Below, one piece after another: positions 9,397-63,456 of a DNA stretch of 64,000 nt (its first letter is position 1; every line of letters starts with the position of its first letter). The notes beneath the pieces were generated by a model. That model was not told the DNA's origin. It searched no databases and was given only the letters and a program-made list of their open reading frames with translations. Source of the DNA: an uncultured Acidobacteriota bacterium (lineage in GTDB: Bacteria > Acidobacteriota > Thermoanaerobaculia > Multivoradales > JAHEKO01). The DNA is taken from the NCBI GenBank assembly GCA_963713825.1, contig CAVQNG010000003.1:1664001-1728000 (forward strand), written 5' to 3'. The position numbers and the translations under genes are program-made.

Positions 9397-9415
9397 GCCA
9401 AGTTACAATGTCCGC

Positions 9416-30263: not shown

Positions 30264-32141
30264 TCATTCCAGTGGATTCTGCTGGTACATCTCGATGTCG
30301 GCCTCGGTGTAGCCCAACTCTTGCCAGTCGAGCACGCCTTCGGGGCTGTGACAGTCGACGCAGGTGAGTGAGCCTTCGCGGCGGATCGCATGGCTGATCT
30401 CCATGGATGCGTCCATGGGAATCCAGCGAGCCTCGACGTTCTTCATGGCTTTGACGTCCTCGTAGGAACCGGCATCCCAGCCTTCGGCGCCCATGAAGGA
30501 CATGAACTCGTCCATCAGATAGAACTTGAACAGCTTGCCGTACATCATCGCCATCATGCTCTTTTCCATCTCCTTCGCCGCCGCCTGTTCGGGGTCGCCG
30601 GTGGTGTAGTAGGTCGGCAAGTTGTAGGGCACGTACATGCCACCGAAGGGAGAGATGTTGGCCAGGTCGATGTGCTGTTTGCCGTTGAAACGCTTCATGG
30701 CGTAGAGCTTCGAGGGCTTCTGCTTGGCGATCGGTCGCATGACGCTCTCGTACCAACCTTCGTAGTCGAAGTCCTGATACTCGGGCCAGACATGCTCGGG
30801 TTTGTAGAAGCTGTAGAGGTCTTTACCGTTGGGATGGTCGCCGATCGGATTGCCGAGAAACGTTCCGTCGCCATTCCACCACTTGAACACGATGCCGCGC
30901 TTGGCGTCGACTTCCTTCTCCAGATCCTCGTAGACGTAGATTCCGGGGTGCTCCTCGAACAGGGGGCTGTCGAAGTCGCGCATGGTGGCATTGTCGGCCT
31001 GCAACGTGGGGATATGGCAGGTGACACAAGCGATCCGCCGGGTATGAGTATTGTAGAAGTCGGCAAGCTCTGGGTCGTCCCGGTGGGGCTCGGCCGAATG
31101 GCACTTCTCACACCGCACTTCGACGTCGGGCAGATCGTTCGCCATCATCGTCGTCGTGTGCGTGCCTTTGGCGATGAGATGCCCCTGGGTGGTATGACAC
31201 TCGATGCAGGCCATGTTCTGCGCCGCGTGCACGTCCCAGGTGGGGGAGTAGGGTGTGCCCCGCTTCGAGCCTGGATGGGCGATTCTCGGCTGGGTGTCGC
31301 CCAGATTCCACTGACTCTGCATGAAGAGCGAGTCCAGTTCGTCGATGTAGATGTCGCCACCGAAATTGTGCTGATGGCAGCGCAGGCAGGTCTTGGCTGT
31401 CGGAGTGACGATCGACAGCGCTGCCCGCATGGAGCGGTCCTGGTCCCACCGGCCCCGCCCGTCCGCACCCACCACGACCTGTTTCTTGTTCATGTCGTAG
31501 GCGGCAGCGTGACAGATCAGGCAGTCGATGGCCGCTTTTTCGGCTTGGGTTGTCCGATAGGCCGGCATGATCTCGCCCAACGGCGCCTGATACTGACCAC
31601 CGATGTGGCACTGGCCGCAACCCTCTGAGAGAGTCGTACCGTCTTCCAGTTCCACGACCTCGGCCCAGGCGGTGAACGCGAAGGAGCCCGGCTTGGGACA
31701 GGGCCGATCGATCTTGCCCATCGGAAAGTTGTCGGCCAGCTCGCCGTTGAAGCCGTAGACGTTCGGGTGACGCGTCGTGAAGAACCGGTAGTGCGAGGAC
31801 TCCAGCAGGTTCTGCATCAGGTCGACGTTCTTGATCTCTCCCGTTTCGGCGTCCTCGATCTGCGCATACTCGTGGCACTGGAGACAAGTTTTCGGCCCTT
31901 CGTAAGCCCGGATACCTGCTTTGCGAAATCGATCGACGTGATCGAACCTCTCAGGGAAGCTGCCGGTCAGGAACTGGGCGATCTCTTCGAACTCCTCTTC
32001 ACTGACCGGCTCGACGGGGAAATCGATGGGCGCCGGCCGGCTGTCGGCCGGCAGCATCCAGTTGATGATGGACGGCCAGGCTACATAACCGATCAGGACG
32101 GCGAGGAATAGAAGGAGTCCTGCAATCAGTAGGGTCTTCAT
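30264..32141 (-). CDS. Membrane-anchored octaheme cytochrome c (octaheme tetrathionate reductase-like)
   Basis: Eight CxxCH motifs (CLQCH, CGQCH, CLICH, CLRCH, CIECH, CEKCH, CVTCH, CVDCH); N-terminal TM segment. Confidence 0.85.
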   Translation of the reverse strand: MKTLLIAGLLLFLAVLIGYVAWPSIINWMLPADSRPAPIDFPVEPVSEEEFEEIAQFLTGSFPERFDHVDRFRKAGIRAYEGPKTCLQCHEYAQIEDAETGEIKNVDLMQNLLESSHYRFFTTRHPNVYGFNGELADNFPMGKIDRPCPKPGSFAFTAWAEVVELEDGTTLSEGCGQCHIGGQYQAPLGEIMPAYRTTQAEKAAIDCLICHAAAYDMNKKQVVVGADGRGRWDQDRSMRAALSIVTPTAKTCLRCHQHNFGGDIYIDELDSLFMQSQWNLGDTQPRIAHPGSKRGTPYSPTWDVHAAQNMACIECHTTQGHLIAKGTHTTTMMANDLPDVEVRCEKCHSAEPHRDDPELADFYNTHTRRIACVTCHIPTLQADNATMRDFDSPLFEEHPGIYVYEDLEKEVDAKRGIVFKWWNGDGTFLGNPIGDHPNGKDLYSFYKPEHVWPEYQDFDYEGWYESVMRPIAKQKPSKLYAMKRFNGKQHIDLANISPFGGMYVPYNLPTYYTTGDPEQAAAKEMEKSMMAMMYGKLFKFYLMDEFMSFMGAEGWDAGSYEDVKAMKNVEARWIPMDASMEISHAIRREGSLTCVDCHSPEGVLDWQELGYTEADIEMYQQNPLE

Positions 32142-40314: not shown

Positions 40315-40468
40315 GGCTGTGGAACCCTCCAGACGAGCGACAGATGGGATCTCCGATTGCGACGCCAGGAACTATATCCGAGGCTTCGGGCCAATCGGCT
40401 ACAATGAGCCTCGCTGCTTTGAAGTGAAACGCTGATTGAGTCGCGGATCGCGGTTGGAGGTCACGGGT

Positions 40469-42850
40469 ATGATCGGGGAGACCCTCGCTCGCTACAAGAT
40501 TGTGGACCAGCTCGGGGTTGGTGGAATGGGAGTGGTCTATCTGGCCGAGGACACGGACCTCGACCGTAAGGTAGCGCTCAAGATGCTGCCGGCCGAGATG
40601 GCCGGGGACCCGGAGCGCTTGGAACGGTTTCGCCGTGAAGCGAAGGCCGTAGCCGCACTGAATCACCCCAACATCGTCACCATTTACAGCATCGAAGAGA
40701 GCGCTGGAACCCAGTTCCTCACCATGGAGCACGTCGATGGGGAGAGCCTGGATCAGATGCTGCCGCCCACAGGGATGCCGCTGTCGAAGGTGTTCGACAT
40801 TGCGGTACCCCTGGCCGACGCGTTGGCGACGGCCCATGAGCGAGGCATCGTCCACCGGGATCTCAAGCCGGCCAATATCATGGTGAACAAGGAAGGCCGC
40901 GTGAAGGTTTTGGACTTCGGGCTGGCCAAACTGACCCAGGACGACGCCCCTGAAGGAGCCGAAGGGGATCTGACTCAGATTCCGACCCGTATCGCCACCC
41001 TGACCGGCGAAGGGATGGTGATGGGCACAGCCCCGTACATGTCGCCCGAGCAAATCGAAGGTCGGGCTATGGACCACCGAACCGACATCTTCTCGCTCGG
41101 GGTCCTACTTTACGAACTGGCTACAGGACGCCGTCCCTTCGACAGCGACAATTCTGCCGGTTTGGTCTCGAGCATTTTGCGCGATACCCCGAGCTCGGTG
41201 ACGGACATCAATCCAGGGCTGCCGCGACACCTGGCACGAATCGTCCAGCACTGTCTGGAGAAGGATCCCGAGGCGCGCTACCAATCAGCCAAGGATGTGA
41301 GGAACGAGCTCAAGAGCCTGCGCCGTGAGGTCGATTCGGGTACGGTCACGACAGGCAGCGGTATCTCGCCAGCCGAGCCGCCGCTGGGTGAGCTGCGGAA
41401 GAAGTCGGGCTTGGGACTTTGGATCGGACTTGCAGCTGCCGCGGTATTGATCCTGCTGATCGGCTGGTGGGTGGGGCGTGGTGGCGGAACCGACGAAGCG
41501 ACGTCGGGTGATGTAGCTGACCGGGCCGCCCCAGTACCGGTGGCAGCACAGTCGGAGGTGCCTTCGGTGGCGATTCTGCCGTTCAAGAACCTGAGCGCAG
41601 ACCCCGACAACGAGTACTTCGCTGACGGTCTCACTGAAGAGTTGATTGGTGCGCTCGCCAAGGTCGATGGCCTGCGCATACCAGCCCGCAGCTCGGTATT
41701 TGCCCTCAAAGGGAGCACCCTCAGCGTGCAGGAGATCGGCGAGCGTTTAGGTGTCGACAACGTTCTGGAGGGCGGCGTTCGCAAGGCTGGCAATCAATTG
41801 CGCATCAGCGCCCAACTGATCAAGGTGGCGGACGGTTTCAACCTCTGGTCCGAGACCTACGACCGGGAGCTCGAGGACGTCTTCCTGATTCAGGATGAGA
41901 TTGCCACCAGCATCGGGGAAGCCTTGCAGCTGACGCTGGCGCCGGGGGGCGATAGGCTCGTACAGGCCGGGCGTAGCACCGACATTCGCGGCTACGACTT
42001 CTATCTTCGAGGACGGGGCTACTTTCGCCGCCGCACCCGTGATGACATCGAGTCGGCGCGCCAGATGTTCATCAAGGCCATCGAGATCGACCCGGAGTAC
42101 GCACCGGCCTATGCCGGCCTGGCCGACACCTACACGGAGTTCTGGCGCAACTACGAGAGTACCGATGAGAACCTGCAGCAGGCGGACCAGGCAAGCCTCA
42201 AGGCGGTTGAGATGGATCCCGACCTGGCAGAGGCACGCGCCGCCAGAGGGTACGCCCTGGGGCAGCAAAGGAAGTACGACGAGGCCAGGCAGGAGTTCGA
42301 GACGGCAATCAGTCTGAACCCCAAGCTCTTCGAGGCCTACTACTACTACGGCACTGTCGCATTTGCCCAGGGAGAGCTCAAGCGGGCCGGCGAGATGTTC
42401 GAGATGGCAACGGAGGTGGCGCCGGACGACATCAGGGCTCTGCAGCTCTTGCCTCAGATCTACCGCAGTCTTGGCAGGGAAGACGAAGTTCGAGAGGCTA
42501 GCGAGCGCCGGCTGGCACTCGCTGAGAGGCTGCTGGAGCTCGATCCGGACGACGTCCAGACACTCCTCTATGGGGCCAATGCACTGGCCACGCTCGGGGA
42601 GCGGGAGCGCAGCTTGGAATGGGCGGCACGGGTACTGGAAGTCGACACCGATGACGCTCTGGTGCTGTACAACATTGCCTGTTTCTACTCACTTGCCGGG
42701 GAAGTCAAGCCGGCGCTCGAAGCGCTCGAGCGATCCTACGAGGCCGGTCTGGCGGATCCGGAGTGGATGGAGCAGGACAGCGATCTCGACAACCTGCGCG
42801 AAGAGGCCCGCTACCAGGCCTTGGTCGAGCGCATGGAAGCCCACGGATAG
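40469..42850 (+). CDS. Ser/Thr protein kinase with TM segment, TolB-N-like domain and TPR repeats
   Basis: LGVGGMGVVY, HRDLKPAN, DFGLAK, YMSPE; SVAILPFKNLS...YFADGLTEELI; GGAGG RBS. Confidence 0.93.
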   Translation: MIGETLARYKIVDQLGVGGMGVVYLAEDTDLDRKVALKMLPAEMAGDPERLERFRREAKAVAALNHPNIVTIYSIEESAGTQFLTMEHVDGESLDQMLPPTGMPLSKVFDIAVPLADALATAHERGIVHRDLKPANIMVNKEGRVKVLDFGLAKLTQDDAPEGAEGDLTQIPTRIATLTGEGMVMGTAPYMSPEQIEGRAMDHRTDIFSLGVLLYELATGRRPFDSDNSAGLVSSILRDTPSSVTDINPGLPRHLARIVQHCLEKDPEARYQSAKDVRNELKSLRREVDSGTVTTGSGISPAEPPLGELRKKSGLGLWIGLAAAAVLILLIGWWVGRGGGTDEATSGDVADRAAPVPVAAQSEVPSVAILPFKNLSADPDNEYFADGLTEELIGALAKVDGLRIPARSSVFALKGSTLSVQEIGERLGVDNVLEGGVRKAGNQLRISAQLIKVADGFNLWSETYDRELEDVFLIQDEIATSIGEALQLTLAPGGDRLVQAGRSTDIRGYDFYLRGRGYFRRRTRDDIESARQMFIKAIEIDPEYAPAYAGLADTYTEFWRNYESTDENLQQADQASLKAVEMDPDLAEARAARGYALGQQRKYDEARQEFETAISLNPKLFEAYYYYGTVAFAQGELKRAGEMFEMATEVAPDDIRALQLLPQIYRSLGREDEVREASERRLALAERLLELDPDDVQTLLYGANALATLGERERSLEWAARVLEVDTDDALVLYNIACFYSLAGEVKPALEALERSYEAGLADPEWMEQDSDLDNLREEARYQALVERMEAHG

Positions 42851-43249: not shown

Positions 43250-44887
43250 ATGACGAGATTCCTGCCGAGTTGGATGCACGAACCTCCGGAGCTGGAGCAC
43301 GAGGCCTTTGGACCCGTCGAGCACCGACAAGCTCTCCTGGTCAACCCTTTCTACGCCAAGGACCCTTGCGGCAGTTTCGGCAAGCACGTTCTGACCCCTA
43401 GCCTGGCGCTGACCAGCATCGCTGCCGCGACGCCGCCCCATTGGCGGGTGACCTACTGGGACGAGAACCTGTTGCAGGGCCCGCCACCTGGTCGTCCGAT
43501 TCCGCAGCTCGTCGGAATCACCGTCCATTTGACCTTTGCCGATCGCGCCTATCAAATTGCTCGCTACTATCGCGATCGAGGCTCGAAGGTGGTGCTGGGG
43601 GGGCTGCACATCCAGAGCTGCTCAGAGGAGGCCCTGGCTCATGCTGATGCGGTTGCGATCGGAGAAGGGGTTCAGCTTTGGCCTCGAATCGTCGCAGACC
43701 TGGAGCGCGGAGAGCTGAAGAAGGTCTATGAGGGCAGCTATCAGTCGCCCTACCAGTCCGATCCGCCGCCGCGTCGCGACCTCATACCACGACGGTCTTT
43801 TCTAACTACCGGCAGCCTGATTGCCACTCGTGGATGCCACAACCGGTGCGGGTTCTGTTATCTCGCGACGGCAGGAACGCATATGCCGTATCAGTTGCGA
43901 AACGTCGAGGACATTGTCGCGGAGATCCAGGCTTGTGGCGAACCGTATGTGGTTTTTGTCGACAACAACCTCGGCTCGCGACGAGACTATCTGCTGCGTC
44001 TATGTGAGGCTATTCGACCGCTCGAGATCATTTGGAGTGCCGCCGTCACGATTGATGTCACTGATGATCCCGCCCTGATCCAGGCCATGGCCCTGGCTGG
44101 TTGCACAGGCGTCTTCGTGGGCTTCGAATCGCTGGGGATGGAGAATCTGACCGCTGCCCGAAAACGGACCCCAGACCCGAGGGACTATGGCCGTCGAGTT
44201 CGGATCTTGCACGATTCTGGGATCCAGGTGAACGGCAGCTTCGTTTTCGGATTCGATGGCGATGGCCCGCGGGTGTTCGACAGCACCCTCCGGTGGATCG
44301 AAGAGAACCGGCTCGAGTGCGCCACCTTTCATATCCTCACCCCTTACCCGGGTACTCCGCTGTTCCGAAGGCTCGAGGCTGAGGGCCGCCTTTTGCATCG
44401 GGACTGGAATCTCTACGACACGGCGCATGTGGTCTTCCGACCTCAGGGAATGAGTGTCGATCAGCTACAAGAGGGCTACGACACCTGCTATCGACAACTG
44501 TTCTCGCATCGGTCGATTTGGCTGCGGCGACCGGACGACTGGCGGGCCACCCCGTCCTACCTGGCGGGTAGCTACCTCTACAAGCGCAGCAATCGCTTGT
44601 GGAGCTTTCTGATCCGCAGGCGGCTCGTTCACCAGGCGTGGCAGCCTCTCATCGAGCTGTCCCGCCGGCGCCATCTGCGATTTCGACGGCGACTGATGTC
44701 GGAGGCGGTTCCCCTACGTCCTGTGGGCCCGCCCGAATGTAGGGGAGGGGCTTGCCCCCTCCCGCGGGAGCCCGCAAGGGACTCCCATACATTGCCGACG
44801 CCGTCCCCTTGCGAACCACTGGGACAGACCTTCACAGGTTTGTCGAGCTTTGGTCGAGCGACGACTACGAATGGTGGTAGCCGCTGA
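43250..44887 (+). CDS. B12-binding domain radical SAM protein
   Basis: VVLGGLH, TRGCHNRCGFC (CxxxCxxC), FVDNN, VGFES, TPYPGT. Confidence 0.9.
   Translation: MTRFLPSWMHEPPELEHEAFGPVEHRQALLVNPFYAKDPCGSFGKHVLTPSLALTSIAAATPPHWRVTYWDENLLQGPPPGRPIPQLVGITVHLTFADRAYQIARYYRDRGSKVVLGGLHIQSCSEEALAHADAVAIGEGVQLWPRIVADLERGELKKVYEGSYQSPYQSDPPPRRDLIPRRSFLTTGSLIATRGCHNRCGFCYLATAGTHMPYQLRNVEDIVAEIQACGEPYVVFVDNNLGSRRDYLLRLCEAIRPLEIIWSAAVTIDVTDDPALIQAMALAGCTGVFVGFESLGMENLTAARKRTPDPRDYGRRVRILHDSGIQVNGSFVFGFDGDGPRVFDSTLRWIEENRLECATFHILTPYPGTPLFRRLEAEGRLLHRDWNLYDTAHVVFRPQGMSVDQLQEGYDTCYRQLFSHRSIWLRRPDDWRATPSYLAGSYLYKRSNRLWSFLIRRRLVHQAWQPLIELSRRRHLRFRRRLMSEAVPLRPVGPPECRGGACPLPREPARDSHTLPTPSPCEPLGQTFTGLSSFGRATTTNGGSR
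44739..44790. repeat. Inverted REP doublet (REPIN-like) inside the radical SAM 3' end
   Basis: GTAGGGGAGGGGCTTGCCCCCTCCC-GC-GGGAGCCCGCAAGGGACTCCCATAC. Confidence 0.8.
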
Positions 44888-45281
44888 GCAGGTAGTCGAT
44901 GCCAATGCCCATCATCTTCTCCCAGGCTTCTTCGACCTCGGTGCTGAACGCGGGATCGCACCGCTTGACCGATTCCAGCAGGCTGTCGAGCCACAGGTCG
45001 TAGAGCTCGGCCCCGACATCGAGGTCCTTGGCGCTGTGCCGTGCCGCCAGGTGGCCGAGGTATCTCTCGGGGCCATCCACAGGATCTTCCGAGGCCAGGA
45101 GGATGAGGTAGAAGGAGGCCCTCAGCAGTCGCTTTTGACGATGGAAGTCGGTGTTGGCGAAGCGCTCCTTGATCTTCGGTGACGAGTCCAGGAAGCGTTC
45201 GTAGAAGATGTCCAAGAACGCCGGGTTGCTGTCACACCGGCGCAGGCTCTGCTCGAAGATCTGGATCGTCTTTTCGTCCAC
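44865..45281 (-). CDS. Single-domain globin
   Basis: FYERF (B10 Tyr), F at CD1, RQK (E7 Gln), LAARH (F8 His), AW; AGGAGG RBS before GTG. Confidence 0.88.
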   Translation of the reverse strand: MDEKTIQIFEQSLRRCDSNPAFLDIFYERFLDSSPKIKERFANTDFHRQKRLLRASFYLILLASEDPVDGPERYLGHLAARHSAKDLDVGAELYDLWLDSLLESVKRCDPAFSTEVEEAWEKMMGIGIDYLLSGYHHS

Positions 45282-45327
45282 CGATTCCTCCTGCCCTAGT
45301 TTCGACTGGGGCTATTGTAGGCCAAAT

Positions 45328-46842
45328 CTAGGGAGGCGGCGTCGGTGCGTCGACCCAGCGCTCCAAATCGATCTGTTCCGCAGTGCGTCGGATTCCGTTG
45401 ATCATGCTGCGGAAGATGAAGCCGTGGAAGGGCAGGACGGAATACCAATAGAGGATTCCCAGCAGGCCCTTTGGCTTGAAGCGAGCGATCTGTTGGAGTT
45501 GGGACCGTCCCACGAGCCCAGGGACCGGTTCGATCCGAAACTCCAATAGAGCCTCTCCAGGGACCACCATTTCGGCTCGAAGGCTGAGCCAGCGGTCTCT
45601 TTCGAGGCCTGCGACGCGCCAGAAGTCGAGGGCGTCTCCATGACGGATCTCCTCTGCATGGCGCCGCCCTCTACGCAGTCCGGGCCCGCCGAGCAGGCGG
45701 TCGATACCGCCCCGTATCCGCCAGAGGATCTGCGAGGAGTACCAGCCGTTGCTACCACCGATACGGCAAATGGCGCGGAATACCTCCGAGGCCGTAGCGG
45801 CAACCTGAGTCTCTTCCTTGTGCACATAGGTCGTGCCACCGGCCCAGTCCGGATCACCGGGAATGGCACCCGCATCGGTCCAGGAGGTTTCGACGTCGCC
45901 GCGCTCGACGTTGCCCAGTGCCTCGTCGATGGCTTCTCGCACACTGAGGAGCTCCTGCGGCATGAGTTGTCGAGCTGTGTTGTTGCGGCACACGACACGG
46001 TTGCGGAGGCCTTCGGCCAGGGGTCGGGCGATGTGTCGACTCAACGGTGTTACGAGCTGGATCCAGAGAGAGCTCAGCCGCGGCGTCAGGACCAGCACTG
46101 GAATGACGAAGCGGTGCCGCAGACCCAAAGCCTCGGCCATGATTCTCATCATGTCGCGGTACGAGAGTATGTCGGGCCCGCCGATGTCGAGAGTTTGGCC
46201 GATGGTCTCCTCCATGACCAGCGCGTCGAGGAGGTATTCGATGACATTGCGCACCGCGATGGGCTGGCATTCCGTCTGCACCCACCGAGGTGTCACCATG
46301 ACGGGCAGTCTCTCGACCAGGTAGCGCAGAATCTCGAACGAGGCGGACCCCGCCCCGATGATCATGGCCGCCCTCAAAACAGTGACGGGAACGGGTCCAG
46401 AAGCTAACAGCTCTTCCGTTTCCCGCCGTGAGGAGAGGTGTTCGCTCAGGCCCTCACCGGTCTCGCCGAGGCCGCCAAGGTAGAGGATGCGTTCGCATCC
46501 CGCGTTGGCTGCTGCGGTGGAGAAGGCTCTGGCCAGCTCGGCGTCTTTCGAGGCGTAGGCGGGCCCCGCCGCCAGCATGGAGTGCACCAGGTAGTACGCC
46601 GCGCTGCAACCCTGCATCTGCTCGGTTAGGAGCGCGGTGTCGCTGACATCTCCGGCAACGATCTCGACCGTCGGCTCAGTAGCCCAGCTTCTCGATTCGA
46701 GCTTCTTCGGGCTTCTCGCCAGGCATCGGACTCGATAGCCCCGTTCCAGCAGACGTGGAACCAGTCTCCCCCCGATGTAGCCGGAGGCGCCGGTTACGAA
46801 GATCGCCGGTGCGGTACTGCCGGCTGGAATTGAGTTTCCCAT
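45328..46842 (-). CDS. Atypical SDR/NAD(P)-binding protein with DUF2867 (YbjT-like)
   Basis: VTGASGYIGGRL, YYLVHSM, HLSSR, GSASFE, LDFWRV, LRAEM. Confidence 0.9.
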   Translation of the reverse strand: MGNSIPAGSTAPAIFVTGASGYIGGRLVPRLLERGYRVRCLARSPKKLESRSWATEPTVEIVAGDVSDTALLTEQMQGCSAAYYLVHSMLAAGPAYASKDAELARAFSTAAANAGCERILYLGGLGETGEGLSEHLSSRRETEELLASGPVPVTVLRAAMIIGAGSASFEILRYLVERLPVMVTPRWVQTECQPIAVRNVIEYLLDALVMEETIGQTLDIGGPDILSYRDMMRIMAEALGLRHRFVIPVLVLTPRLSSLWIQLVTPLSRHIARPLAEGLRNRVVCRNNTARQLMPQELLSVREAIDEALGNVERGDVETSWTDAGAIPGDPDWAGGTTYVHKEETQVAATASEVFRAICRIGGSNGWYSSQILWRIRGGIDRLLGGPGLRRGRRHAEEIRHGDALDFWRVAGLERDRWLSLRAEMVVPGEALLEFRIEPVPGLVGRSQLQQIARFKPKGLLGILYWYSVLPFHGFIFRSMINGIRRTAEQIDLERWVDAPTPPP

Positions 46843-46861
46843 GTTTGGGCAGGGCCGGAGC

Positions 46862-47875
46862 TCAGCGCCCTAGAATTCTTCGACGCTTTCTGGACAGCGC
46901 ATAGAGACGCCGCGGCTCGTCGAATCCCTTGACCTCGCGCTCTCCGAGGTCATGGAATTTGAAGTCCTTGGAGGCCATCTTCTGCGTCGACTCGCAAGCG
47001 ATGATCGAACCAGTCTTCTCGTTGGCGAATTTCTCGATGCGGAAGGCGAGTACCACGGGCTCACCGATCATGGAGAGCCCCATCGCGCCGGTCTCGCCGT
47101 GGCCGGACATCACCACGGTGCCGGTGGCAAGAGCCCAGTCCACATGCAGTGGGAAGCTGTCGATCTGCCAGAGGCCAGGAACCTCGGCCAGTTCCTTGGC
47201 GAGTCGGTCGAGCTTCAGGGCCGCCTCGCAGGCGCTGGCGGCGTGATTCTCCGAGGTCTCCTCCTCCCAGAAAGCGAAGACCGCATCTCCCTGGAATTCT
47301 TTGATCGTGCCTCCGAGAGAGATGATCTCTTTCTCGAGACGCTCGAAGAGTCGGCTCACCGACTCCTGAAGGGCTGAAGTGGTGGCCTGCTGCACCAGTA
47401 CCGTGTAGTCGCGGATGTCCCCGACGAGCACCGTGAGTCTCTTCACCTCTTCCACCTTCATTGTGAGCTTGGAGAACTCGGATGTCGGGACTTCGGTGTC
47501 GCTGGGTTGGTCTCCTTCGAGACGAAACGTCAATTGCCTACCGATGGACAGGGTCTGGCCGACATGAATCTCGGTCTGGAGATTGGGAGACAGTCGCCGA
47601 CCGTCCATCCGAGTTCCGTTGCGGCTCACATCCCGGGCGTGGCAACGGCCGTCCGGATCCTGGGTCAGGATGCAATGCCGCGAGGAGACCGTCGGGTCGA
47701 TGAGCAGCAGGTGGCCGGCGGCCTCGCGGCCCGGACGGTAGCGCCCAATCTCGATTCGATCGAAGAAAGGGTAGCTCGCACCGTCATCGAGACCACCCAC
47801 CTGCACCAACCGTTTGGCAGGGTGCTGGGTGGGTGCCGGTTCGATGTAGCTTTCTACTTTGATTGCCTCACTCAC
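46862..47875 (-). CDS. FHA-domain class III nucleotide cyclase
   Basis: FHA motifs IGR, VSSRHC, SRNGT; cyclase motifs GDIRDYT, KEFQGDAV, LAFRIE, VKGF. Confidence 0.88.
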   Translation of the reverse strand: MSEAIKVESYIEPAPTQHPAKRLVQVGGLDDGASYPFFDRIEIGRYRPGREAAGHLLLIDPTVSSRHCILTQDPDGRCHARDVSRNGTRMDGRRLSPNLQTEIHVGQTLSIGRQLTFRLEGDQPSDTEVPTSEFSKLTMKVEEVKRLTVLVGDIRDYTVLVQQATTSALQESVSRLFERLEKEIISLGGTIKEFQGDAVFAFWEEETSENHAASACEAALKLDRLAKELAEVPGLWQIDSFPLHVDWALATGTVVMSGHGETGAMGLSMIGEPVVLAFRIEKFANEKTGSIIACESTQKMASKDFKFHDLGEREVKGFDEPRRLYALSRKRRRILGR

Positions 47876-47900
47876 CGCCGACTCTCTGTTCCGTTCGGGC

Positions 47901-48281
47901 CTAGCCCCTTAATCGAGCCACTTCGTCACCGAGCTCGCGGACTCGCTGCGACATGGTTTGGACGATTTTAAAGGCAAGTGAGGGATCTACGTGAATTCTC
48001 TTGAGAAAGTTCTTCTTATCTATGGTCAGGACCTTGACCTCACCCTGGGCCCTGAGGGTTGCGGAGCGCACCTCGTGGTCGAAGATTGCCATCTCACCCA
48101 GGAACTCGCCCTCCTCGGCGACTCTCAAGAGGGTCTCGTGGCCGTCTCTCTCGACTAGGATGTCCACCTTCCCCTTCTGGATGACGTACATGACCTTTCC
48201 TACGTCGCCCTGTCGGGTGATGATCTCGCCGTCTTGGTAGACCTTGCCGAGGGCTCCCTTTTCGATCGACTGCTTTCTCAT
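47901..48281 (-). CDS. Stand-alone cyclic nucleotide-binding domain protein
   Basis: QGD-x-G-x-x-MYVIQKGKV, FLGEMAIF...RSAT; ATGA overlap with the upstream gene. Confidence 0.9.
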   Translation of the reverse strand: MRKQSIEKGALGKVYQDGEIITRQGDVGKVMYVIQKGKVDILVERDGHETLLRVAEEGEFLGEMAIFDHEVRSATLRAQGEVKVLTIDKKNFLKRIHVDPSLAFKIVQTMSQRVRELGDEVARLRG

Positions 48282-49657
48282 GGATGGCTCCTTTTGCCGG
48301 GGACTACCGCAGCCAACAGCTCCCAGGACAGTCGGCCCAGCAACCTGGGATGGATGGCTCGTGTGAAGATCTCCAAGTACGCTGCGCTACCCGTGAACAT
48401 GTCCCACAGGACCTGACTGATGTCCTTGTGACGCCCTGGGATGCTCTGCTCCTTCTGGGTCATTCTGAGCATCGCCCGACGTGCGAAGGGCATCATTTGA
48501 ATCAGCTTGGTGCCGCTGAAGGTCACCTTCCCGATGGCGTTGTCGCGCAGGATGGTCTTGAGAATGGGTGCATAGTGGCGCCGAAAAGCCTCCTCTGAGA
48601 TGCCCTCGAACACGGCTGTTGTAGCACAGGCCTTGGCCGTCTTGTAGGCCGCACCGATGCCATCTTTGTAGAGGCGCGTGACGCCGCAGTCGCCGACGAA
48701 GACGATGCGATCTCCGTAGGGCTGGAGCGCTCCCTTGACAGCGATCTTTGGTGAGCATTGGCAAGAGCGGGGCTCGGGGACCCAGTCGTCGGGCATGCAA
48801 TCTCGGACCTCGTCCGAGTTGAGAAAGGCGTCGATGAGTTCCTTGTCGATGGCGTCTCCCAGGAGGCAGACGCTGACGTAATCGCCCTTCGGGATGATGG
48901 CGGCGAACTCCAGCCGCGGGATGTTGAGGAGAAAGACGTGCATGGAATCGCCCAGCGTCTCTGCGATGACCTCTTCTCCAAAGAAGTACTCCCTGATGAA
49001 GGTCTTGGTTGTCTGGGGAGGTTCGTAGCCGAAATCGAGCTCCTTGAAGAGCTTGAGCGCAGGGGAGTTCACCCCAACGGCAGCCACCAGGAGGTCGTAG
49101 CTCTGGGGCTCACCACCCTTCACGGCGAGGCAGGGGCGACCGTTGTCGATGGAGATCTCGGTCACCCGGCCCCGTGTGACATGGGCGCCTCTAGCAACGG
49201 CTAGCTCCTCGAGATGATGATCGAAGCTGCCCCACTTGCGGACCTGAATGTCGCGAGGCCCAGCGCCCCGATAGACGGCCGCGATGCGCTTCTCCTCAAT
49301 CGGAGTCTCGATGCGGACCGTTCCGACATCCATGTGCAGGACGTAGGACTCGATGCCCCTCTGCACTACGGTGTCCGGCAGGTTGATGCCCTCTGCAGCG
49401 AGGTTCTGAACCAGGGTTTCGGAAATGATGCCGCCGCACATGTTGCAGCCGCCCGGTGCGACGCAGGAGAAGTCTCTGGGCTCGTAGATTTCGACGTCGA
49501 TCTCGAGGTCGGCACGGTCGGCCATTTCGAGCAGGAAGTAGCTCGCAAACGAGCCCGCGGGTCCGCCTCCAATGACAGCGACTCGGGAACCGTCGACCAG
49601 CTCCAGACAGTCCTGACTGGGTTGGGCCTGACTGGATTGGGGATGCGAGTCTGCCAT
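48278..49657 (-). CDS. FAD-dependent oxidoreductase (geranylgeranyl reductase-like)
   Basis: VIGGGPAG, GCNMCGG, VFVGDCG...DGIGAA; AAAGGAG RBS. Confidence 0.82.
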   Translation of the reverse strand: MADSHPQSSQAQPSQDCLELVDGSRVAVIGGGPAGSFASYFLLEMADRADLEIDVEIYEPRDFSCVAPGGCNMCGGIISETLVQNLAAEGINLPDTVVQRGIESYVLHMDVGTVRIETPIEEKRIAAVYRGAGPRDIQVRKWGSFDHHLEELAVARGAHVTRGRVTEISIDNGRPCLAVKGGEPQSYDLLVAAVGVNSPALKLFKELDFGYEPPQTTKTFIREYFFGEEVIAETLGDSMHVFLLNIPRLEFAAIIPKGDYVSVCLLGDAIDKELIDAFLNSDEVRDCMPDDWVPEPRSCQCSPKIAVKGALQPYGDRIVFVGDCGVTRLYKDGIGAAYKTAKACATTAVFEGISEEAFRRHYAPILKTILRDNAIGKVTFSGTKLIQMMPFARRAMLRMTQKEQSIPGRHKDISQVLWDMFTGSAAYLEIFTRAIHPRLLGRLSWELLAAVVPGKRSHP

Positions 49658-49987
49658 CGGCACTCCTTTCGTCTGCCGAGCACAGTTCCTCTGTGTTCGA
49701 CCAGCGCGTATTGAGCTCACGGATGACGCGGAGCTTCGGCGCCGGCCCCCGAGGCCGGGGCCGCTCTGTCTTCCGTGTTCAGGACTCGTCCACCTGCCCA
49801 GCAAAGTATTTGGTTGTGGAAGACCGCGCCACCCCAATTCGGGTGGTGGGCTGCGCTATCCGTTGGGGTGGGCCGATCGACGCATAGCCAAATGTCGATA
49901 GGGTCGCGGGTAGATTGGATTGACTGCCGAGCGTGTCTGTGCGAGCGTTTCAAGTTGGACTGCGTTGGATCCAATCCGGGAGGCCGC

Positions 49988-51586
<1,599 letters not shown>

Positions 51587-51612: not shown

Positions 51613-53274
51613 CTATTGCTTGCGAAGCAGTAGCAGCGTCCGATCGTCGGCGTAGGGAGCTCCCTCGACGAACTCTTCCAGCGCGTTCTCGATCGTTCGG
51701 GTCAAGGTTCCCAGTTCGGCATGCCGATTGCTGGCCACGACCTCGGCCAGGCGCTCGGTCCCGAACTCCTCGTCAGCAGGATTGGTGGCTTCGATGAAGC
51801 CGTCCGTAAAGAGAACCAGGGTATCCCCGGATTCGAGAAGGGCACTCGACTCCGAGTACTCGATGCTCGGGAAAGCCCCCAGGGGCGGTCCGGTGGAGCC
51901 CAAGCGGAGGACATTGCCTTTCGATCCCACCAAGAGGCCGGGGTGGCCGGCACTCGCGTAGCGCAGTATCCGACCGTGTGGTTCGACGACTACCATGAAG
52001 GCAGTGGCGAAACGGTTGGGCAGGGTTCTCGAGTGTAGGCGTCGATTGACTCGAGTGCAGATCTCGGCCGGCGACCGCCCCACCTCGATGGGCCCGGCTG
52101 CCAGGGCCTCCAGGGAGAGGGTGGTCAACGATGCGCAGAGTCCCTTGCCGCAAACGTCGGCGATGATGAGCACCGTTTCTTTTCCCCCGAGGCGCTCGAC
52201 GGCCTGGTAGTAGTCTCCCGACACCCCGCGTGATGGCATGATCGAACCTGTCAGATCGTAGCCGTCGATCGTCGGCAGCTTGGTGGGAAGCACCGCGGTC
52301 TGGATGCTACGAGCCAGGTTCAGGTCGGCTTCGTAACGATGTCGCTCAGCGGCCTCTTGGGCGGCCCGCTGAGCGAGCTTGACGTTGTGGATGCGCAGAG
52401 ACGCGATGGAGGCGAGAGACGCCAGGAGATCGCGATCGTCTTTACCGAAAGAAGACTTTCCCTGGTTGGAAGCCAAGGCGATCATGCCGAGCGAGCCTTC
52501 GGGGTCCGACAGGGGCGCTGCAACGAGACTGTGGACCCCGATGCTCAGCACGCTGTCGGCCGTGTCAAACCGCTCGTCGTGGGCAGCATCAGTTACCAGT
52601 GCCGCCATTCCGTTATCCGCTACCTGGTGCAGGAGCGTCTCGGAGTACAGGTGCTCGATTCCGGGGCCGTCCGCGCTGCGTTCGGCGGCGAGGTAGTAGT
52701 CGCCGTTGTCTCGCTTGAGGAAGATCACCTCCTGGTCGGGCTGAAGAGTCTCGAAGCAGCGATTGAGAATCAAGTCGAGTAGCTCGTCCAATTGGAGGGT
52801 CCCACTCAGCTCGCGGTGGATCGAGTGCAGCAGTTGGAGTCGATCGGTCTGTCGCCGGAAGGATCCGCGCTGGGATAGGCTCGCGAGGTCGGTCGGACTG
52901 TCCGAATCGATGAGTTCGGATGCCCGCCGATACTCGGTGTTGTGCTCGGTAACCGGGTCTCTGCGGGGCGTGGGCGTCTCGATCCCGTCCGAGAGCAGGG
53001 TGATGTAGCTCGTCGAGAGCCGCAGCTCGTCACCAGGATGGATCTCTGTTGGTTCTTCAACGCGTTGGTCGTTGACCCAGGTGCCGTTGCTAGAGCCGAG
53101 ATCCTCGACCCAGACGTGCTCTCCTGTGCGATAGAGCCGGGCATGCTGGCGAGAAAGAAACCTGTCCTTGACGACCAGATCGGACTCCGACACTCGACCG
53201 ATCGAGATCGACTCTTCTTCCAGGGGATACTCGAAGTCCTCCCCTTGGCTCGGGAACACTCGCAGGCGATACAT
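51613..53274 (-). CDS. FHA-GAF-SpoIIE (PP2C) protein phosphatase
   Basis: IGR, SRQHA, SSNGT; VSGDYY, ADVCGKG, FTDG, DDRT. Confidence 0.92.
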   Translation of the reverse strand: MYRLRVFPSQGEDFEYPLEEESISIGRVSESDLVVKDRFLSRQHARLYRTGEHVWVEDLGSSNGTWVNDQRVEEPTEIHPGDELRLSTSYITLLSDGIETPTPRRDPVTEHNTEYRRASELIDSDSPTDLASLSQRGSFRRQTDRLQLLHSIHRELSGTLQLDELLDLILNRCFETLQPDQEVIFLKRDNGDYYLAAERSADGPGIEHLYSETLLHQVADNGMAALVTDAAHDERFDTADSVLSIGVHSLVAAPLSDPEGSLGMIALASNQGKSSFGKDDRDLLASLASIASLRIHNVKLAQRAAQEAAERHRYEADLNLARSIQTAVLPTKLPTIDGYDLTGSIMPSRGVSGDYYQAVERLGGKETVLIIADVCGKGLCASLTTLSLEALAAGPIEVGRSPAEICTRVNRRLHSRTLPNRFATAFMVVVEPHGRILRYASAGHPGLLVGSKGNVLRLGSTGPPLGAFPSIEYSESSALLESGDTLVLFTDGFIEATNPADEEFGTERLAEVVASNRHAELGTLTRTIENALEEFVEGAPYADDRTLLLLRKQ

Positions 53275-53920: not shown

Positions 53921-54016
53921 GCCCCACTGCCTCAAAGGTGGGCCGGAGGGACGACGGACTTTTCAACCTCCAAGCCCCCAAAGGTCGGCCGGGAGCCACG
54001 ACCGGACGCCTCAACC
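53921..54016 (+). repeat. REP-like hairpin pair, family 3
   Basis: CCTCAAAGG...GGAGGGACG...TCAACC unit followed by a second unit. Confidence 0.7.
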
Positions 54017-54904
54017 TTCAATCTTCTTGTACCAATCGGCGAGACCGGCACCGATTCCGTGGGGGTTGTCTTCTTGCACGTAGTGGATGCCCTTGCCGAT
54101 GTCCACGCCCTCGATATTGGGCAGGTTGGCGAGCAGCTTGTCGGCAAGTGGGCGAGGAATCAGACCGCCCGGAGTTGCATAGAACAAGAGCTTCGGCAGA
54201 TGGGTCTTCCCCAGCCATTCCGCATAGCTCTCCACGGCTGCCTGAACGTCGCCAGGGTCACCGTCGATGGGGATCTCCCGGGGCCACTGGCGCACCGGGA
54301 GTCGACTGGCAATTGTGGGGAAGGGCTCTGCGTAGTGGGCCATTTCCTCAGCGGTGAGTGTTCGCGCTGTGGCTTTCGGCAATAACCTCTGAATGAAGAC
54401 ATTCCCCACGGAGATCATCAACCAACCCACTCCCGATGTCCGAAAGAGCTTGAACCCCATCTTGTAGTCGGGCGGGAAGTCGCTCCAGCGTGATGGCTGG
54501 ACGATGGCCTCCATGAAGGCTACTCCCTTCACATTTGCCTCATGGCGGCAGGCGTAGTGAAACCCCAGGCCCGAGCCCCAGTCGTGAATCACCAGAGTCA
54601 CGTTCTTGAGGTCGAGAGCCTCGATGAAGCCCTCGAGGTACTTCGAATGGTCGAAGAATCGGTAGGGGATGTCCGGCTTGTCGGATCGGCCCATGCCGAT
54701 GAGATCGGGCGCGATAGCCCGAGCCACGGGAGTGACGTAGGGGATGATGTTGCGCCACAAATAGGACGAGGTCGGATTGCCGTGCAGAAACAGAACGGGA
54801 TCCCCCTCCCCCTCGTCGATGTAGTGCATCTTCGAGCCGAGAACCTCTACGTACTTGGACTCGAACGGGAACTCGGCAGAGATCGGTTGCTCAGAAGTCA
54901 TCAT
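54011..54904 (-). CDS. Haloalkane dehalogenase (DhaA/LinB-like)
   Basis: HGNPTSSYLWRN, HDWG nucleophile, FMEA, WPREIP, HYVQED. Confidence 0.92.
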   Translation of the reverse strand: MMTSEQPISAEFPFESKYVEVLGSKMHYIDEGEGDPVLFLHGNPTSSYLWRNIIPYVTPVARAIAPDLIGMGRSDKPDIPYRFFDHSKYLEGFIEALDLKNVTLVIHDWGSGLGFHYACRHEANVKGVAFMEAIVQPSRWSDFPPDYKMGFKLFRTSGVGWLMISVGNVFIQRLLPKATARTLTAEEMAHYAEPFPTIASRLPVRQWPREIPIDGDPGDVQAAVESYAEWLGKTHLPKLLFYATPGGLIPRPLADKLLANLPNIEGVDIGKGIHYVQEDNPHGIGAGLADWYKKIEG

Positions 54905-61677: not shown

Positions 61678-61782
61678 TCGGCAACTGGAGAGACCTCGGA
61701 CGCGGCTTTGCACCTCTGTGATCTTGGAGATCGCTCTCTAAGCCGTTACGCCCCTATGCCCCTACTGCCTCTAACGGCGCCA

Positions 61783-61863
61783 GGGGTTCGTTCGGGTGAT
61801 TCGACAGGGGGGCTATCCTCCCTTCCGCTGCAAGAACCCCCTGGAGGTCCCCACGACGAACCT
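61783..61863. repeat. Chimeric family 1 / family 2 repeat
   Basis: Family-1 arm GGTTCGTTCGGGTGATTCGACAGGGGG joined to family-2 core GGCTATCCTCCCTTCC...CCCCACGACGAACC. Confidence 0.85.
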
Positions 61864-61884
61864 CCAAGAGATCTTGGCGATCTG

Positions 61885-61980
61885 CCCAAGCCCTCAAAGA
61901 TCGGCTGGCGCAGGTGCCAGACGCTTCAACCCCCAAGCCCACAAGGATCGGCCGGAGGTACGACGGCCGCCTCAATCCTC
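61885..61980 (+). repeat. REP-like hairpin pair, family 3
   Basis: Two tandem CCCAAGCCC...TCAA units. Confidence 0.75.
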
Positions 61981-62040
61981 ATTGCCTTCCCGGGACTCTT
62001 GTCCCGGGAGGGCAGTGACCGCTATCCTGGGCCGACTCGA

Positions 62041-63456
62041 ATGACGCAGCCCGTTACCCTGCCCCTATGGCTTGTGGTCTTGCTGGTCGCCTTCGCGACT
62101 CTGGCGGCCTTGGACTATCTGATCAGGCCGAGCCTGCGATGGGTGGTTCGGCGACGGGTCCGGCGGGTGCTCGAGGATCTCGAGAGTCGCTTTCAGATCC
62201 GCGGGCGACCCTTCAAGCTGACGAAAAGACAGGTCCTGATTGACCGGCTCGTCTACGACCGGGAAGTGGCGGCCGCGGCCGAGCGGCACGCCCGGGAGAC
62301 GGAAATGTGTCCAGAGGAGACGCTGGATCGGGTCCAGCGATACGCCTCCGAGATCGTGCCGGCCTTCAATGCCTACTTCTATTTCAGACTTGGATACGGG
62401 ATCGCACGGTGGTTTGCGCGTTCGCTCTACCGGGTGCGCCTGGGGGTCTCCGATGGAGGAGCGCTGGCGGCCATCGACGAAAGCTCGACAGTGGTCTTCG
62501 TCATCAATCACCGTAGCAACATGGACTACGTCCTGGTCTCCTATCTGGCGGCGGAAAAGGCGGTTCTGAGCTACGCGGTGGGAGAGTGGGCGCGGATTTT
62601 TCCTCTCGAGTCCCTGATCCGATCCATGGGCGCCTACTTCGTGCGGCGTCGGTCGCGCAACGATCTCTATCGCAAGGTACTGCAGCGCTACGTGCAGATG
62701 GCCACGGCGGAAGGAGTGACCCAGGCCGTCTTTCCGGAGGGCGGCCTGAGTCGGGATGGAGGCCTCCAAGAGCCGAAGCTCGGTTTGTTGGACTACATGT
62801 TGCGGGAGTTCGATCCCGAAGGAGAGCGCGATCTGGCGTTCGTGCCGGTGGCTCTCAACTACGACCGGGTCCTGGAGGACCGAACTCTCCTGTTGGACCT
62901 CGATCCCGAGGCCAAGCGCAAGAAAGGCCTATCGGCGATGCAAACGACGGGGCGATTTGTCACTCGACAGCTGCAATTGATGACGCTGGCGAAATGGCAT
63001 CGCTTCGGCTACGCGTGCGTGAACTTCGGCAGCCCCGTCTTCGCCAAGGCCTATCTGGCAGAGCAAGGGGTGGATCTGCGAACTCTCGAAAAGGAAGAGC
63101 GCTTCGCGCGCGTTGGGGAGTTGGCAGACCACCTGATGGGCGAGGTTGGCCGGATCGTCCCCGTCACCCCCGTGGCGCTGGTGGCCACGGTCCTTTTGCA
63201 CGAGCCGGGACGGCGCATCAGCGACCTGGAGCTCAAAGCCGAGGTGCAGCGACGCATCGATCAATTCGAAGCCTCGGGACACCACGTCTATGTTCCGCGC
63301 CAGGACAGGGAATACGCTATCGATGTGGGGCTGCGCATGCTGGTGTTGCGGAAGGTGGTGGAGCGGGACGAAGAAGGCCTGCTGCGTGTGGAGCCTGACG
63401 AGCTCCCGCTGCTACGCTATTACGCGAACTCGATCGCCCATCTGGCAAGCGAGTGA
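62041..63456 (+). CDS. Glycerol-3-phosphate acyltransferase (PlsB-like)
   Basis: NHRSNMD (HxxxxD), GAYFVRR, FPEGGLSRDG, VPVALNYDRVLED. Confidence 0.88.
   Translation: MTQPVTLPLWLVVLLVAFATLAALDYLIRPSLRWVVRRRVRRVLEDLESRFQIRGRPFKLTKRQVLIDRLVYDREVAAAAERHARETEMCPEETLDRVQRYASEIVPAFNAYFYFRLGYGIARWFARSLYRVRLGVSDGGALAAIDESSTVVFVINHRSNMDYVLVSYLAAEKAVLSYAVGEWARIFPLESLIRSMGAYFVRRRSRNDLYRKVLQRYVQMATAEGVTQAVFPEGGLSRDGGLQEPKLGLLDYMLREFDPEGERDLAFVPVALNYDRVLEDRTLLLDLDPEAKRKKGLSAMQTTGRFVTRQLQLMTLAKWHRFGYACVNFGSPVFAKAYLAEQGVDLRTLEKEERFARVGELADHLMGEVGRIVPVTPVALVATVLLHEPGRRISDLELKAEVQRRIDQFEASGHHVYVPRQDREYAIDVGLRMLVLRKVVERDEEGLLRVEPDELPLLRYYANSIAHLASE

Follow-up and report, generated by a model that had tools for sequence, protein, structure and literature searches.

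A flavoprotein and a stand-alone cyclic-nucleotide-binding protein encoded as a conserved gene pair: a probable cyclic-nucleotide-gated flavoenzyme in uncultured bacteria

Between 44865 and 49657, the minus strand of a 64,000-nucleotide stretch (the window) of contig CAVQNG010000003.1 from an uncultured Acidobacteriota bacterium carries five co-directional open reading frames (ORFs) in a row. They encode, in reading order, an orphan flavoprotein that depends on flavin adenine dinucleotide (FAD), a stand-alone cyclic-nucleotide-binding (CNB) protein, a class III nucleotide cyclase with an FHA domain, a protein with a short-chain dehydrogenase/reductase (SDR)-like domain and DUF2867, and a globin (Table 1). 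The question raised by this locus is whether these genes belong to one signalling system, and what such a system would do. An earlier note, made from the sequence alone, had taken all five for a candidate operon of cyclic GMP (cGMP) and redox signalling, with the globin as its O2/NO input. Our analysis points to a layered arrangement, which we hold with moderate confidence: the flavoprotein and the CNB protein would form a core pair, the cyclase would be a local signal source, the CNB domain would act as the switch for a cyclic nucleotide monophosphate (cNMP), the SDR-DUF2867 protein would be an accessory, and the globin would stand outside. The module is probably a cNMP-gated flavoenzyme. The earlier interpretation survives in part, since a regulatory subunit and an associated cyclase are supported, while its kinase link and its cGMP are plausible and its globin input is not supported.

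Relatives of the flavoprotein were collected by a scan of genome contigs, one genome per species, which gave 468 relatives among 595 pattern matches, and the best 80 loci (L001 to L080) were examined. All 80 come from metagenome-assembled genomes with about ten phylum labels: Acidobacteriota (including Aminicenantes), Chloroflexota, Planctomycetaceae, Polyangiaceae, Deltaproteobacteria/Thermodesulfobacteriota, Eisenbacteria, Krumholzibacteriota, Bacteroidota/Ignavibacteria, Dadabacteria, Binatia and "Eubacteriales". The closest relatives, L001 and L002, share 90% and 87% flavoprotein identity with the window, and the closest is labelled Thermoanaerobaculia, which, together with an ADOP family permease in the window, makes an acidobacterial chromosome the most likely source of the sequence. 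The window proteins were matched to these loci by tblastn, and the neighbouring genes were annotated with a home-made codon-usage gene caller and domain profiles built from the window's own domains. For the neighbourhood counts, 341 genes within three positions of the flavoprotein gene (near) were compared with 352 genes beyond (far).

Synteny of the flavoprotein and CNB genes was found to be conserved. Among the 74 loci with at least 450 nt after the flavoprotein gene, a CNB gene lies directly downstream on the same strand in 72, the exceptions being L033 and L070; six further loci have less than 450 nt there, with a partial CNB gene in two and nothing in four. The stop and start codons overlap by 4 bp in 30 of the 72 loci. 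In seven others (L013, L016, L018, L024, L052, L064 and L072) one ORF spans both genes, and the remaining spacings fall, with one exception, within −41 to +90 nt. Pfam confirmed the fusions that were scanned, FAD-CNB in L013 and FAD-CNB-CNB in L072. A profile search of 1.84 billion cluster representatives returned 1409 flavoprotein hits, 484 of them at E ≤ 1e-30. Pfam was run on 26 entries of long or odd length among the best 150 of these 1409, and cNMP_binding followed the flavoprotein part in 12, one of which also had GGDEF. Judged from gene order, the flavoprotein and the CNB protein are the conserved core of the cluster.

Structure prediction is in line with this. With each protein given as a 64-row alignment, the flavoprotein-CNB complex obtained an ipSAE of 0.70 (runs 0.72, 0.67 and 0.70), against 0.01 for the best control. 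Among solved complexes 116 of 157 reach this mark, as do 2 of 215 mismatched pairs; these counts are rough here because our own alignments were used. The runs had at least 77% of contacts in common, with a partner pLDDT of at least 77. Since the flavoprotein has no solved sequence relative, the predictor is unlikely to have reproduced a complex already known. Its interface takes in residues 81–101 and 120–126 of the flavoprotein, which follow directly on the invariant GCNMCGGIISE, together with 258 and 339–346, and residues 8–13, 33–36, 57–58, 85–87 and 91–106 of the CNB protein, partly in its C-terminal helical part. In other CNB domains this part moves upon ligand binding. Interface residues of the flavoprotein match the family consensus at 80%, compared with 70% for the rest of the protein and 60% for the interface positions of two CNB-less, DUF2867-fused enzymes (L070 and L078), which lends mild support to the contact. 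The complex prediction supports binding of the two proteins, and together with the adjacency, overlaps, single ORFs and database fusions it supports the earlier proposal that the cNMP protein may be a regulatory subunit of the flavoenzyme.

Table 1. Genes and spacer of the cluster, with positions in the window and the matches on which the names rest.
Feature	Position	Strand	Basis
Orphan FAD-dependent oxidoreductase (flavoprotein), 459 aa	48278–49657	minus	DAO 21 bits and TIGR02032 49.7 bits, both below cut-off
Stand-alone CNB protein, 126 aa	47901–48281	minus	PF00027 80 bits (gathering cut-off 27.5), residues 14–94
FHA-class III nucleotide cyclase, 337 aa, GTG start	46862–47875	minus	FHA 42 bits (cut-off 20.7); Guanylate_cyc 26.3 bits (cut-off 21.9)
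Two-domain SDR-DUF2867 protein, 504 aa	45328–46842	minus	NAD_binding_10 57.6 bits; DUF2867 126.6 bits (cut-off 27)
Spacer of 46 bp ahead of the globin, with TACAAT and GGAGG	45282–45327	minus	Sequence; kept in the two closest relatives
Single-domain 3/3 globin, PA3967 type, 138 aa, GTG start	44865–45281	minus	Globin 25.2 bits (cut-off 22)

The layout of the locus agrees with what had been described: all ORFs are co-directional, the stop codon of the flavoprotein gene shares an ATGA with the start codon of the CNB gene, an AAAGGAG lies shortly ahead of it (both read directly in the sequence), and the coordinates give gaps of 25, 19 and 46 bp after the CNB gene. The ATG of the flavoprotein at 49657 is preceded by GAAAGGAG, and homologues of 454 aa cover 100% of the protein. 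Pfam confirmed every named domain of the five genes, and no NCBIfam match above cut-offs was found for the five gene products. A consensus scan of 44500–50200 revealed no sigma-70-like promoter and no minus-strand terminator-like site. Between the flavoprotein gene and the divergent gene ahead of it, a GC-rich hairpin with a 7-bp stem (49743–49763) was scanned as terminator-like on the plus strand.

More than 5431 homologues of the flavoprotein were found among 8000 candidates scored. The best 120 are 63–98% identical, and the most specific name among them is "flavin-dependent dehydrogenase". The flavoprotein scores below every curated Pfam and NCBIfam cut-off; its best NCBIfam match, the geranylgeranyl reductase family TIGR02032 (residues 26–347), has a cut-off of 158.8 bits, so that the protein falls outside this family. 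Searched by sequence against the PDB, it gave nothing usable, with a best E of 0.85 for the single sequence and 0.017 for a 64-sequence profile, and in the ESM Atlas it matched only automatically named "FAD oxidoreductase" clusters. Its AF2 model (pLDDT 89, pTM 0.88) had at least 500 PDB matches at E ≤ 0.001, and the top-ranked among the matches listed are PHBH-fold flavoproteins, with TM 0.5–0.63 and 11–18% identity. They include kynurenine 3-monooxygenase (KMO), halogenases, FixC, squalene epoxidase, 3-hydroxybenzoate 6-hydroxylase and Ta0516 (3oz2; TM 0.55–0.62, 14% identity). On this model the flavoprotein is a putative FAD-dependent oxidoreductase with the PHBH fold, of geranylgeranyl-reductase-like type.

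The FAD motifs of the PHBH fold are an N-terminal GxGxxG and a C-terminal Gly-Asp, and in 64 orthologues of the flavoprotein an N-terminal GGGPAG as well as G322 and D323 are conserved. Group A flavoprotein monooxygenases have an Asp-Gly motif (GADG) for FAD and NAD(P)H; the stretch at this position, as aligned by eye, reads AVGVNS in the flavoprotein, with G195 and N197 invariant. The enzyme shares its overall fold with the geranylgeranyl reductase and PHBH-fold flavoproteins but differs from them, beyond its low identity, in additional cysteines that are invariant in the 64 orthologues, C71-x2-C74 (in GCNMCGG) and C299-x-C301 (in SCQCSP). Together these four might make up a metal site or a redox-active dithiol beside the flavin. 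The Cys-Gly-Gly stretch and an IPKGD stretch presumably resemble motifs of geranylgeranyl reductases. CxxCGG is present in 31 of the best 150 library representatives, mostly the top-scoring ones.

Other fusions, in more distant members of the flavoprotein family, were seen among the 26 scanned entries: five with an NDH-2-like flavoprotein (P0191, P0222, P0235, P0243 and P0232), three tandem FAD-FAD duplications (P0136, P0138 and P0146), five with DUF7530 at the N-terminus (P0202, P0203, P0210, P0231 and P0241), and one with FecR (P0129). The fragment P0205 reads FAD-CNB-GGDEF. CxxCGG is absent from all NDH-2-like and tandem forms and from four of the five DUF7530 forms checked, and so these forms were treated as paralogous branches and their context was not transferred. 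A quinone-related function, which had been considered from these fusions, was dropped because they lack the CxxCGG of the window's orthologue group.

The phosphate-binding cassette of CAP-type CNB domains has the pattern Gly-Glu ... Arg-Ser/Thr-Ala, and that of the window protein is GEMAIFDHEVRSA. Across 64 CNB sequences R72 is invariant, and each of G62, E63, S73 and A74 is found in at least 90%. Of the NCBIfam models CRP fits best, with 60.4 bits against a cut-off of 266 (CNB residues 15–124 on CRP positions 28–139 of 214). The protein thus has the CNB fold of the CRP/FNR regulators but scores far below the CRP cut-off, and in its 126 aa Pfam finds cNMP_binding only and no helix-turn-helix domain. 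The NCBIfam model of mycobacterial Pat (NF058543) also matches, at E 3.4e-11, far below its cut-off.

These features recall two known systems in which a CNB domain passes a cyclic-nucleotide signal to an enzyme. In the cyclic AMP (cAMP)-dependent protein kinase (PKA), a regulatory subunit with CNB domains is bound to the catalytic subunit. The pair would be similar in that a separate CAP-type CNB polypeptide, here encoded as a unit with the enzyme, is proposed to sit on it and relay cyclic-nucleotide binding, and different in that the partner is a flavoprotein, not a kinase, and the receptor a single CNB domain alone. Mycobacterial Pat is a cAMP-regulated protein acetyltransferase whose CNB domain acts on the enzyme directly. 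Like Pat, the pair would place a bacterial CNB domain on a metabolic enzyme and not on transcription, and the FAD-CNB fusions share its one-polypeptide logic; unlike the GNAT acetyltransferase, the enzyme here is a PHBH-fold flavoprotein, and in the window the two parts are separate proteins. In the arrangement that we prefer, the flavoprotein and the CNB protein would be translationally coupled, the CNB protein would most likely sit on the flavoprotein as its regulatory subunit, and binding of a cyclic nucleotide would change the activity of the flavoenzyme in either direction.

In low-GC loci labelled Aminicenantes or "Eubacteriales", the pair was seen within a longer run of cyclic-nucleotide genes. 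In L036 (4373–14731, Pfam-scanned) the order is CHASE2-cyclase, a metallo-beta-lactamase-fold protein, an MscS channel with a CNB domain, the flavoprotein, the CNB protein, an FHA-GAF-cyclase, and a 773-aa fusion of CNB, acetate kinase and phosphate propanoyltransferase. A similar run occurs in L050, and parts of it in L047, L060 and L074, as read from our own domain profiles and gene lengths.

A cyclase gene is often close to the pair, which supports a dedicated cyclase such as the one that the earlier note had grouped with it in the window. The class III cyclase domain was found in 41 of the 341 near genes and 1 of the 352 far genes, which places a cyclase within three genes of the flavoprotein in 38 of 78 loci. 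FHA (28 near vs 3 far genes) and GAF (16 vs 2) were enriched as well. The architecture of the cyclase varies. Sixteen loci have the FHA-cyclase of the window (full-length tblastn match, 44–87% identity), and nine have an FHA-GAF-cyclase, with one more in split form. A CHASE2-cyclase is found in L036 (Pfam-scanned) and, as a matching gene by our own profiles, in L050, and a single cyclase domain with AAA_16 and TPR in L038. In Anaerolineales, tandem cyclases of 900–1400 aa lie upstream of the pair, and the one scanned (L014) has two cyclase stretches, AAA_16 and TPR. A fixed receptor-enzyme pair with interchangeable cyclases is, as far as gene order can tell, what a dedicated local signal source would look like, and the neighbouring class III cyclase would supply the ligand of the CNB protein.

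We also considered that the CNB protein might be a feedback regulator or buffer of the cyclase or of the cNMP pool, with the flavoenzyme merely co-expressed. Small stand-alone ligand-binding proteins can serve as buffers, and in the window, as in the 16 loci with a full-length FHA-cyclase match, the CNB gene has the flavoprotein gene on one side and the cyclase gene on the other. However, the pair persists without a nearby cyclase, or with a cyclase upstream or on the opposite strand; every fusion found joins the CNB domain to the flavoprotein, never to a cyclase; and it is with the flavoprotein that the CNB protein is predicted to make contact (0.70 vs 0.01). This makes the buffer a quite unlikely role, and a subunit of the flavoenzyme remains the preferred one.

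The best PDB match of the window cyclase is CyaB of Pseudomonas aeruginosa (3R5G, 64.5 bits), followed by Cya2 of Synechocystis (2W01). In the alignment with both, the metal ligands D153 and D197 are kept, as are R279 and K316. The base-specifying pair consists of Glu193, which is Lys in adenylate cyclases and aligns with the Glu of Cya2, and Ser268, and Val275 occupies the transition-state Asn position of all reference enzymes. In the 13 complete cyclases of this clade, window included, the first position of the pair is Glu in all 13 and the second is Ser in 11, Ala in one and Thr in one; the Asn position holds Val in 11 and Ile in two. The ten FHA-GAF cyclases, on the other hand, show the canonical residues (Asp, Lys, Asp, Thr, Asn, Arg), with Asn in 10 of 10. 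The review PMC6005667 assigns the pair Glu-Cys/Ser to guanylate cyclases, Lys-Asp/Thr to adenylate cyclases and Glu-Gly to Cya2, and places Asn569 among the catalytic residues of Cya2. The window enzyme would thus resemble Cya2 and the eukaryotic guanylate cyclases in its first position, its Ser fitting the Glu-Cys/Ser type of that review, and differ from them in having Val for Asn569 and an FHA input in place of CHASE2 or H-NOX.

From these residues the clade of the window looks like guanylate cyclases with an unusual active site, the Glu-Ser pair suggesting GTP as substrate and cGMP as product, while in most other lineages the receptor has what look like adenylate cyclases for partners. Loci of other phyla have the flavoprotein-CNB pair beside canonical Lys-Thr adenylate cyclases with other input domains. 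The cGMP of the earlier note is plausible from the Glu-Ser pair, but less certain given the Val at the catalytic Asn and a CNB cassette that is the same beside canonical adenylate cyclases.

The FHA-cyclase of this clade could also be impaired, a scaffold or pseudo-enzyme, with the CNB ligand coming from other cyclases or with none at all. Val or Ile at the transition-state position in 13 of 13 members would fit this, and the cyclase domain of the window scores 26.3 bits in Pfam, compared with 134 bits for the FHA-GAF-cyclase of L027. Nevertheless, 12 of the 13 complete sequences retain the two metal-binding Asp, the Arg and the phosphate Lys (one has Asn for Lys), and the substitutions are uniform across loci labelled Acidobacteriota, Eisenbacteria and Polyangiaceae, which looks like a selected variant site and not like decay. 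We consider an impaired cyclase improbable and retain the local cyclase as the likely source.

The window cyclase carries the FHA residues GR, SxxH and NGT, and so do 22 of 22 N-terminal FHA cyclases of the loci. We take Gly-Arg, Ser-x-x-His and Asn-Gly(-Thr) to be the phosphothreonine-binding signature of FHA domains. With such an input domain, the cyclase of the window's clade is probably controlled or localised by a phosphothreonine protein. A link from the FHA domain to Ser/Thr kinases, as had been suggested, is therefore plausible from the signature, but the surroundings of the pair show no excess of kinase genes (6 of 341 near vs 9 of 352 far genes) or of PP2C phosphatases (3 near vs 2 far). 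In L005 an FHA-GAF-PP2C gene was seen directly upstream of the flavoprotein gene.

DUF2867 is the other recurrent neighbour. It occurs in 10 of 341 near genes vs 1 of 352 far genes, and in 12 of 78 loci, either as SDR-DUF2867 or alone. Two loci have it in one ORF with the flavoprotein: DUF2867-FAD in L070 (2–1822; 607 aa, 5'-open), with no CNB gene, and SDR-DUF2867-FAD in L078 (7456–10386; 977 aa), where 330 nt of sequence follow the flavoprotein. Judging by this recurrence, the SDR-DUF2867 protein is an accessory of the module. The earlier label of "SDR" holds for its N-terminus, which is an NAD(P)-binding SDR-like domain with TGASGYIGG and an NmrA match of 47.8 bits beside NAD_binding_10, but falls short of the whole protein with its two domains. 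Reading the SDR part by eye, without alignment to a reference, showed no clear YxxxK.

The AF2 model of the DUF2867 domain (pLDDT 84.6) gave 213 PDB matches at E ≤ 0.001 in Foldseek, with TM 0.4–0.56, led by CoxG, CalU16, Bet v 1, START and PYL, so that on its model the domain is an SRPBCC/Bet v 1/START-like fold. Lipid-related genes recur after the CNB gene in other loci. A DegV-family gene on the opposite strand was found in L009, L012, L014, L015 and L019, all labelled Anaerolineales/Chloroflexota (a blastp cluster of five, one of them Pfam-scanned), and a Polyketide_cyc2 (SRPBCC) gene in L026, L044, L053 and L056 (a blastp cluster of four, one Pfam-scanned). DegV and Polyketide_cyc2 families bind lipids or other hydrophobic ligands. 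From the fold of DUF2867 and these neighbours we infer that the substrate or product of the flavoenzyme may be hydrophobic, and the SRPBCC-fold domain of the SDR-DUF2867 protein would probably hold it.

The globin differs from the other genes in its distribution. It is a true 3/3 globin relative whose closest solved relative is PA3967 (1TU9; 86.7 bits, E 1.6e-23), a single-domain globin to which it aligns over 125 residues including the proximal His ("ARHS" with "ASHS"). PMC1457004 counts P. aeruginosa among the genomes with single-domain globins, and its reference list gives 1TU9 as an unpublished structural-genomics deposit. Beside the module, the globin is found in 2 of the 80 loci only, L001 and L002, at the same position, and it is not enriched near the flavoprotein (1 of 341 near vs 1 of 352 far genes). 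TACAAT and GGAGG precede its GTG as had been noted, and in this spacer TTTGGCCTACAATAGC and the ribosome-binding site are kept in L001, while L002 has TAGAAT. By its distribution the globin is a lineage-specific addition outside the module, and it is probably transcribed from its own promoter; by its adjacency alone, it may act with the module in the window's lineage.

These results bear on the possibility that all five genes form one pathway from O2/NO through cGMP to redox chemistry, in which the globin controls the FHA-cyclase and cGMP acts via the CNB protein. The tight, co-directional spacing, the aligned proximal His, the guanylate-cyclase-type Glu-Ser pair and the constant place of the globin in L001 and L002 would all fit, but these two loci are the closest relatives, the globin is otherwise unenriched, and its conserved TACAAT/TAGAAT spacer with a ribosome-binding site suggests separate transcription. 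No other cyclase architecture beside the pair contains or adjoins a globin, and no haem domain was found in any of them. The locus therefore differs from haem-regulated systems such as the sGC-like and globin-coupled cyclases, since the window globin is a separate gene that is neither fused to nor consistently partnered with a cyclase. We regard the single pathway as unlikely, and the O2/NO input proposed for the globin found no support.

That unrelated signalling and redox genes have come together by chance, in a genome rich in signalling genes, would be suggested by the many Ser/Thr kinase, FHA and TPR genes of the window, and by the kinase, PP2C phosphatase and globin genes, which show no excess around the pair. 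The 72 of 74 adjacency, the fusions and the excess of cyclase, FHA and DUF2867 genes contradict chance for the first four genes, and as an account of the cluster we find it barely credible; for the globin and the neighbouring kinase and phosphatase genes it still stands. The five-gene arrangement as described earlier is thus far beyond chance for the first three genes and DUF2867, but not for the globin.

Several points weigh against the layered arrangement that we prefer. Val or Ile in place of the transition-state Asn makes the activity of the clade's cyclase uncertain. No column of the CNB alignment separates loci with Glu-Ser cyclases from those with Lys-Thr cyclases, which leaves a cGMP-specific receptor unsupported; an attempt to tell cAMP from cGMP through the receptor failed, the cassette being identical across both groups. 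L033 has no CNB gene nearby, yet its flavoprotein interface matches the consensus at 76%. The nearest folds of the flavoprotein model span monooxygenases, halogenases and reductases at TM of about 0.6 and indicate no one substrate. The genes would be an operon by spacing alone. As to the sample, synteny was counted on the best 80 of the 468 relatives and from the flavoprotein loci outward; the neighbourhood counts cover 78 of the 80 loci (all but L051 and L073), with some genes missed in very GC-rich loci; and the loci are related to each other, so that the counts and Fisher tests are not independent events.

That a CNB domain can pass a cyclic-nucleotide signal to an enzyme is already known. 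What is new here is an orphan flavoprotein as the partner, a minimal stand-alone receptor, and the breadth of the module in uncultured phyla. In the open-access literature (subscription journals lay outside the scope) no description of the flavoprotein-CNB gene pair was found, and DUF2867 was listed in two papers; the earlier note likewise knew of no characterised system with such a composition. A wider reading, which we put forward tentatively and at slightly less than even confidence, is that the pair is a new class of bacterial cyclic-nucleotide effector, a PKA-like switch of two subunits in which a minimal CNB protein gates a redox enzyme acting on a lipophilic substrate, in about ten phyla of bacteria that are mostly uncultured, with lineage-specific cyclases. 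As part of this reading, the FHA-linked, Glu-Ser, Asn-less cyclases of Thermoanaerobaculia-like Acidobacteriota and others would be a clade that has gone unnoticed and may make cGMP.

To our knowledge, few direct protein targets of cAMP or cGMP besides transcription factors are known in bacteria, and the pair, if the reading is true, would add a metabolic redox enzyme to them. The design is kept from Acidobacteriota to Chloroflexota, Planctomycetota, Myxococcota and several candidate phyla, and such wide conservation would offer a handle on cyclic-nucleotide signalling in lineages with almost no genetics. It would also give a first functional context to DUF2867 and to a large orphan flavoprotein family, the 484 representatives at E ≤ 1e-30. 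The Glu-Ser/Val cyclase clade would be a test case for variation of the class III active site, and possibly a new bacterial source of cGMP.

Rfam and tRNA scans of the whole window gave no match. Of the genes flanking the cluster, one for a B12-binding radical-SAM protein with DUF4070 (43250–44887, plus strand) is convergent with the globin gene, and 23 bp at the 3' end of the globin gene are shared by the two. The last ~80 residues of this protein are Pro/Arg/Gly-rich and may be read-through; its sole match among the 80 loci is a 44-residue tail match in L001, with none in the other 79. On the other side, a divergent 603-aa ORF (49775–51586, plus), which probably starts downstream of the GTG at 49775, has APH (phosphotransferase) and AAA_33 kinase domains and adjoins an FHA-GAF-SpoIIE (PP2C) phosphatase (51613–53274, minus). 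L001 keeps both genes in the same place, and L002 keeps the APH gene. The flanks also include a Ser/Thr kinase with TPR repeats. The Ser/Thr kinase, PP2C phosphatase and APH-AAA_33 genes were considered as module members and rejected, being not enriched or kept only in L001 and L002.

Two large Ser/Thr kinases were seen in the window, one of 1075 aa (20978–24205, minus), which also matches TIGR04510, "putative peptide modification system cyclase", below cut-off, and one with TPR repeats (40436–42850, plus). Further genes of the window are an ADOP duplicated permease (4729–7134; 804.6 bits, above cut-off), a phospholipase A-like gene (8181–9506), a sulfide:quinone reductase-like gene (11580–12737), a 1900-aa tandem-95 repeat protein (15195–20897), an octahaem cytochrome c-like protein (30264–32141), a haloalkane dehalogenase (54011–54904; 391 bits, above cut-off) and a PlsB-like acyltransferase (61708–63453).

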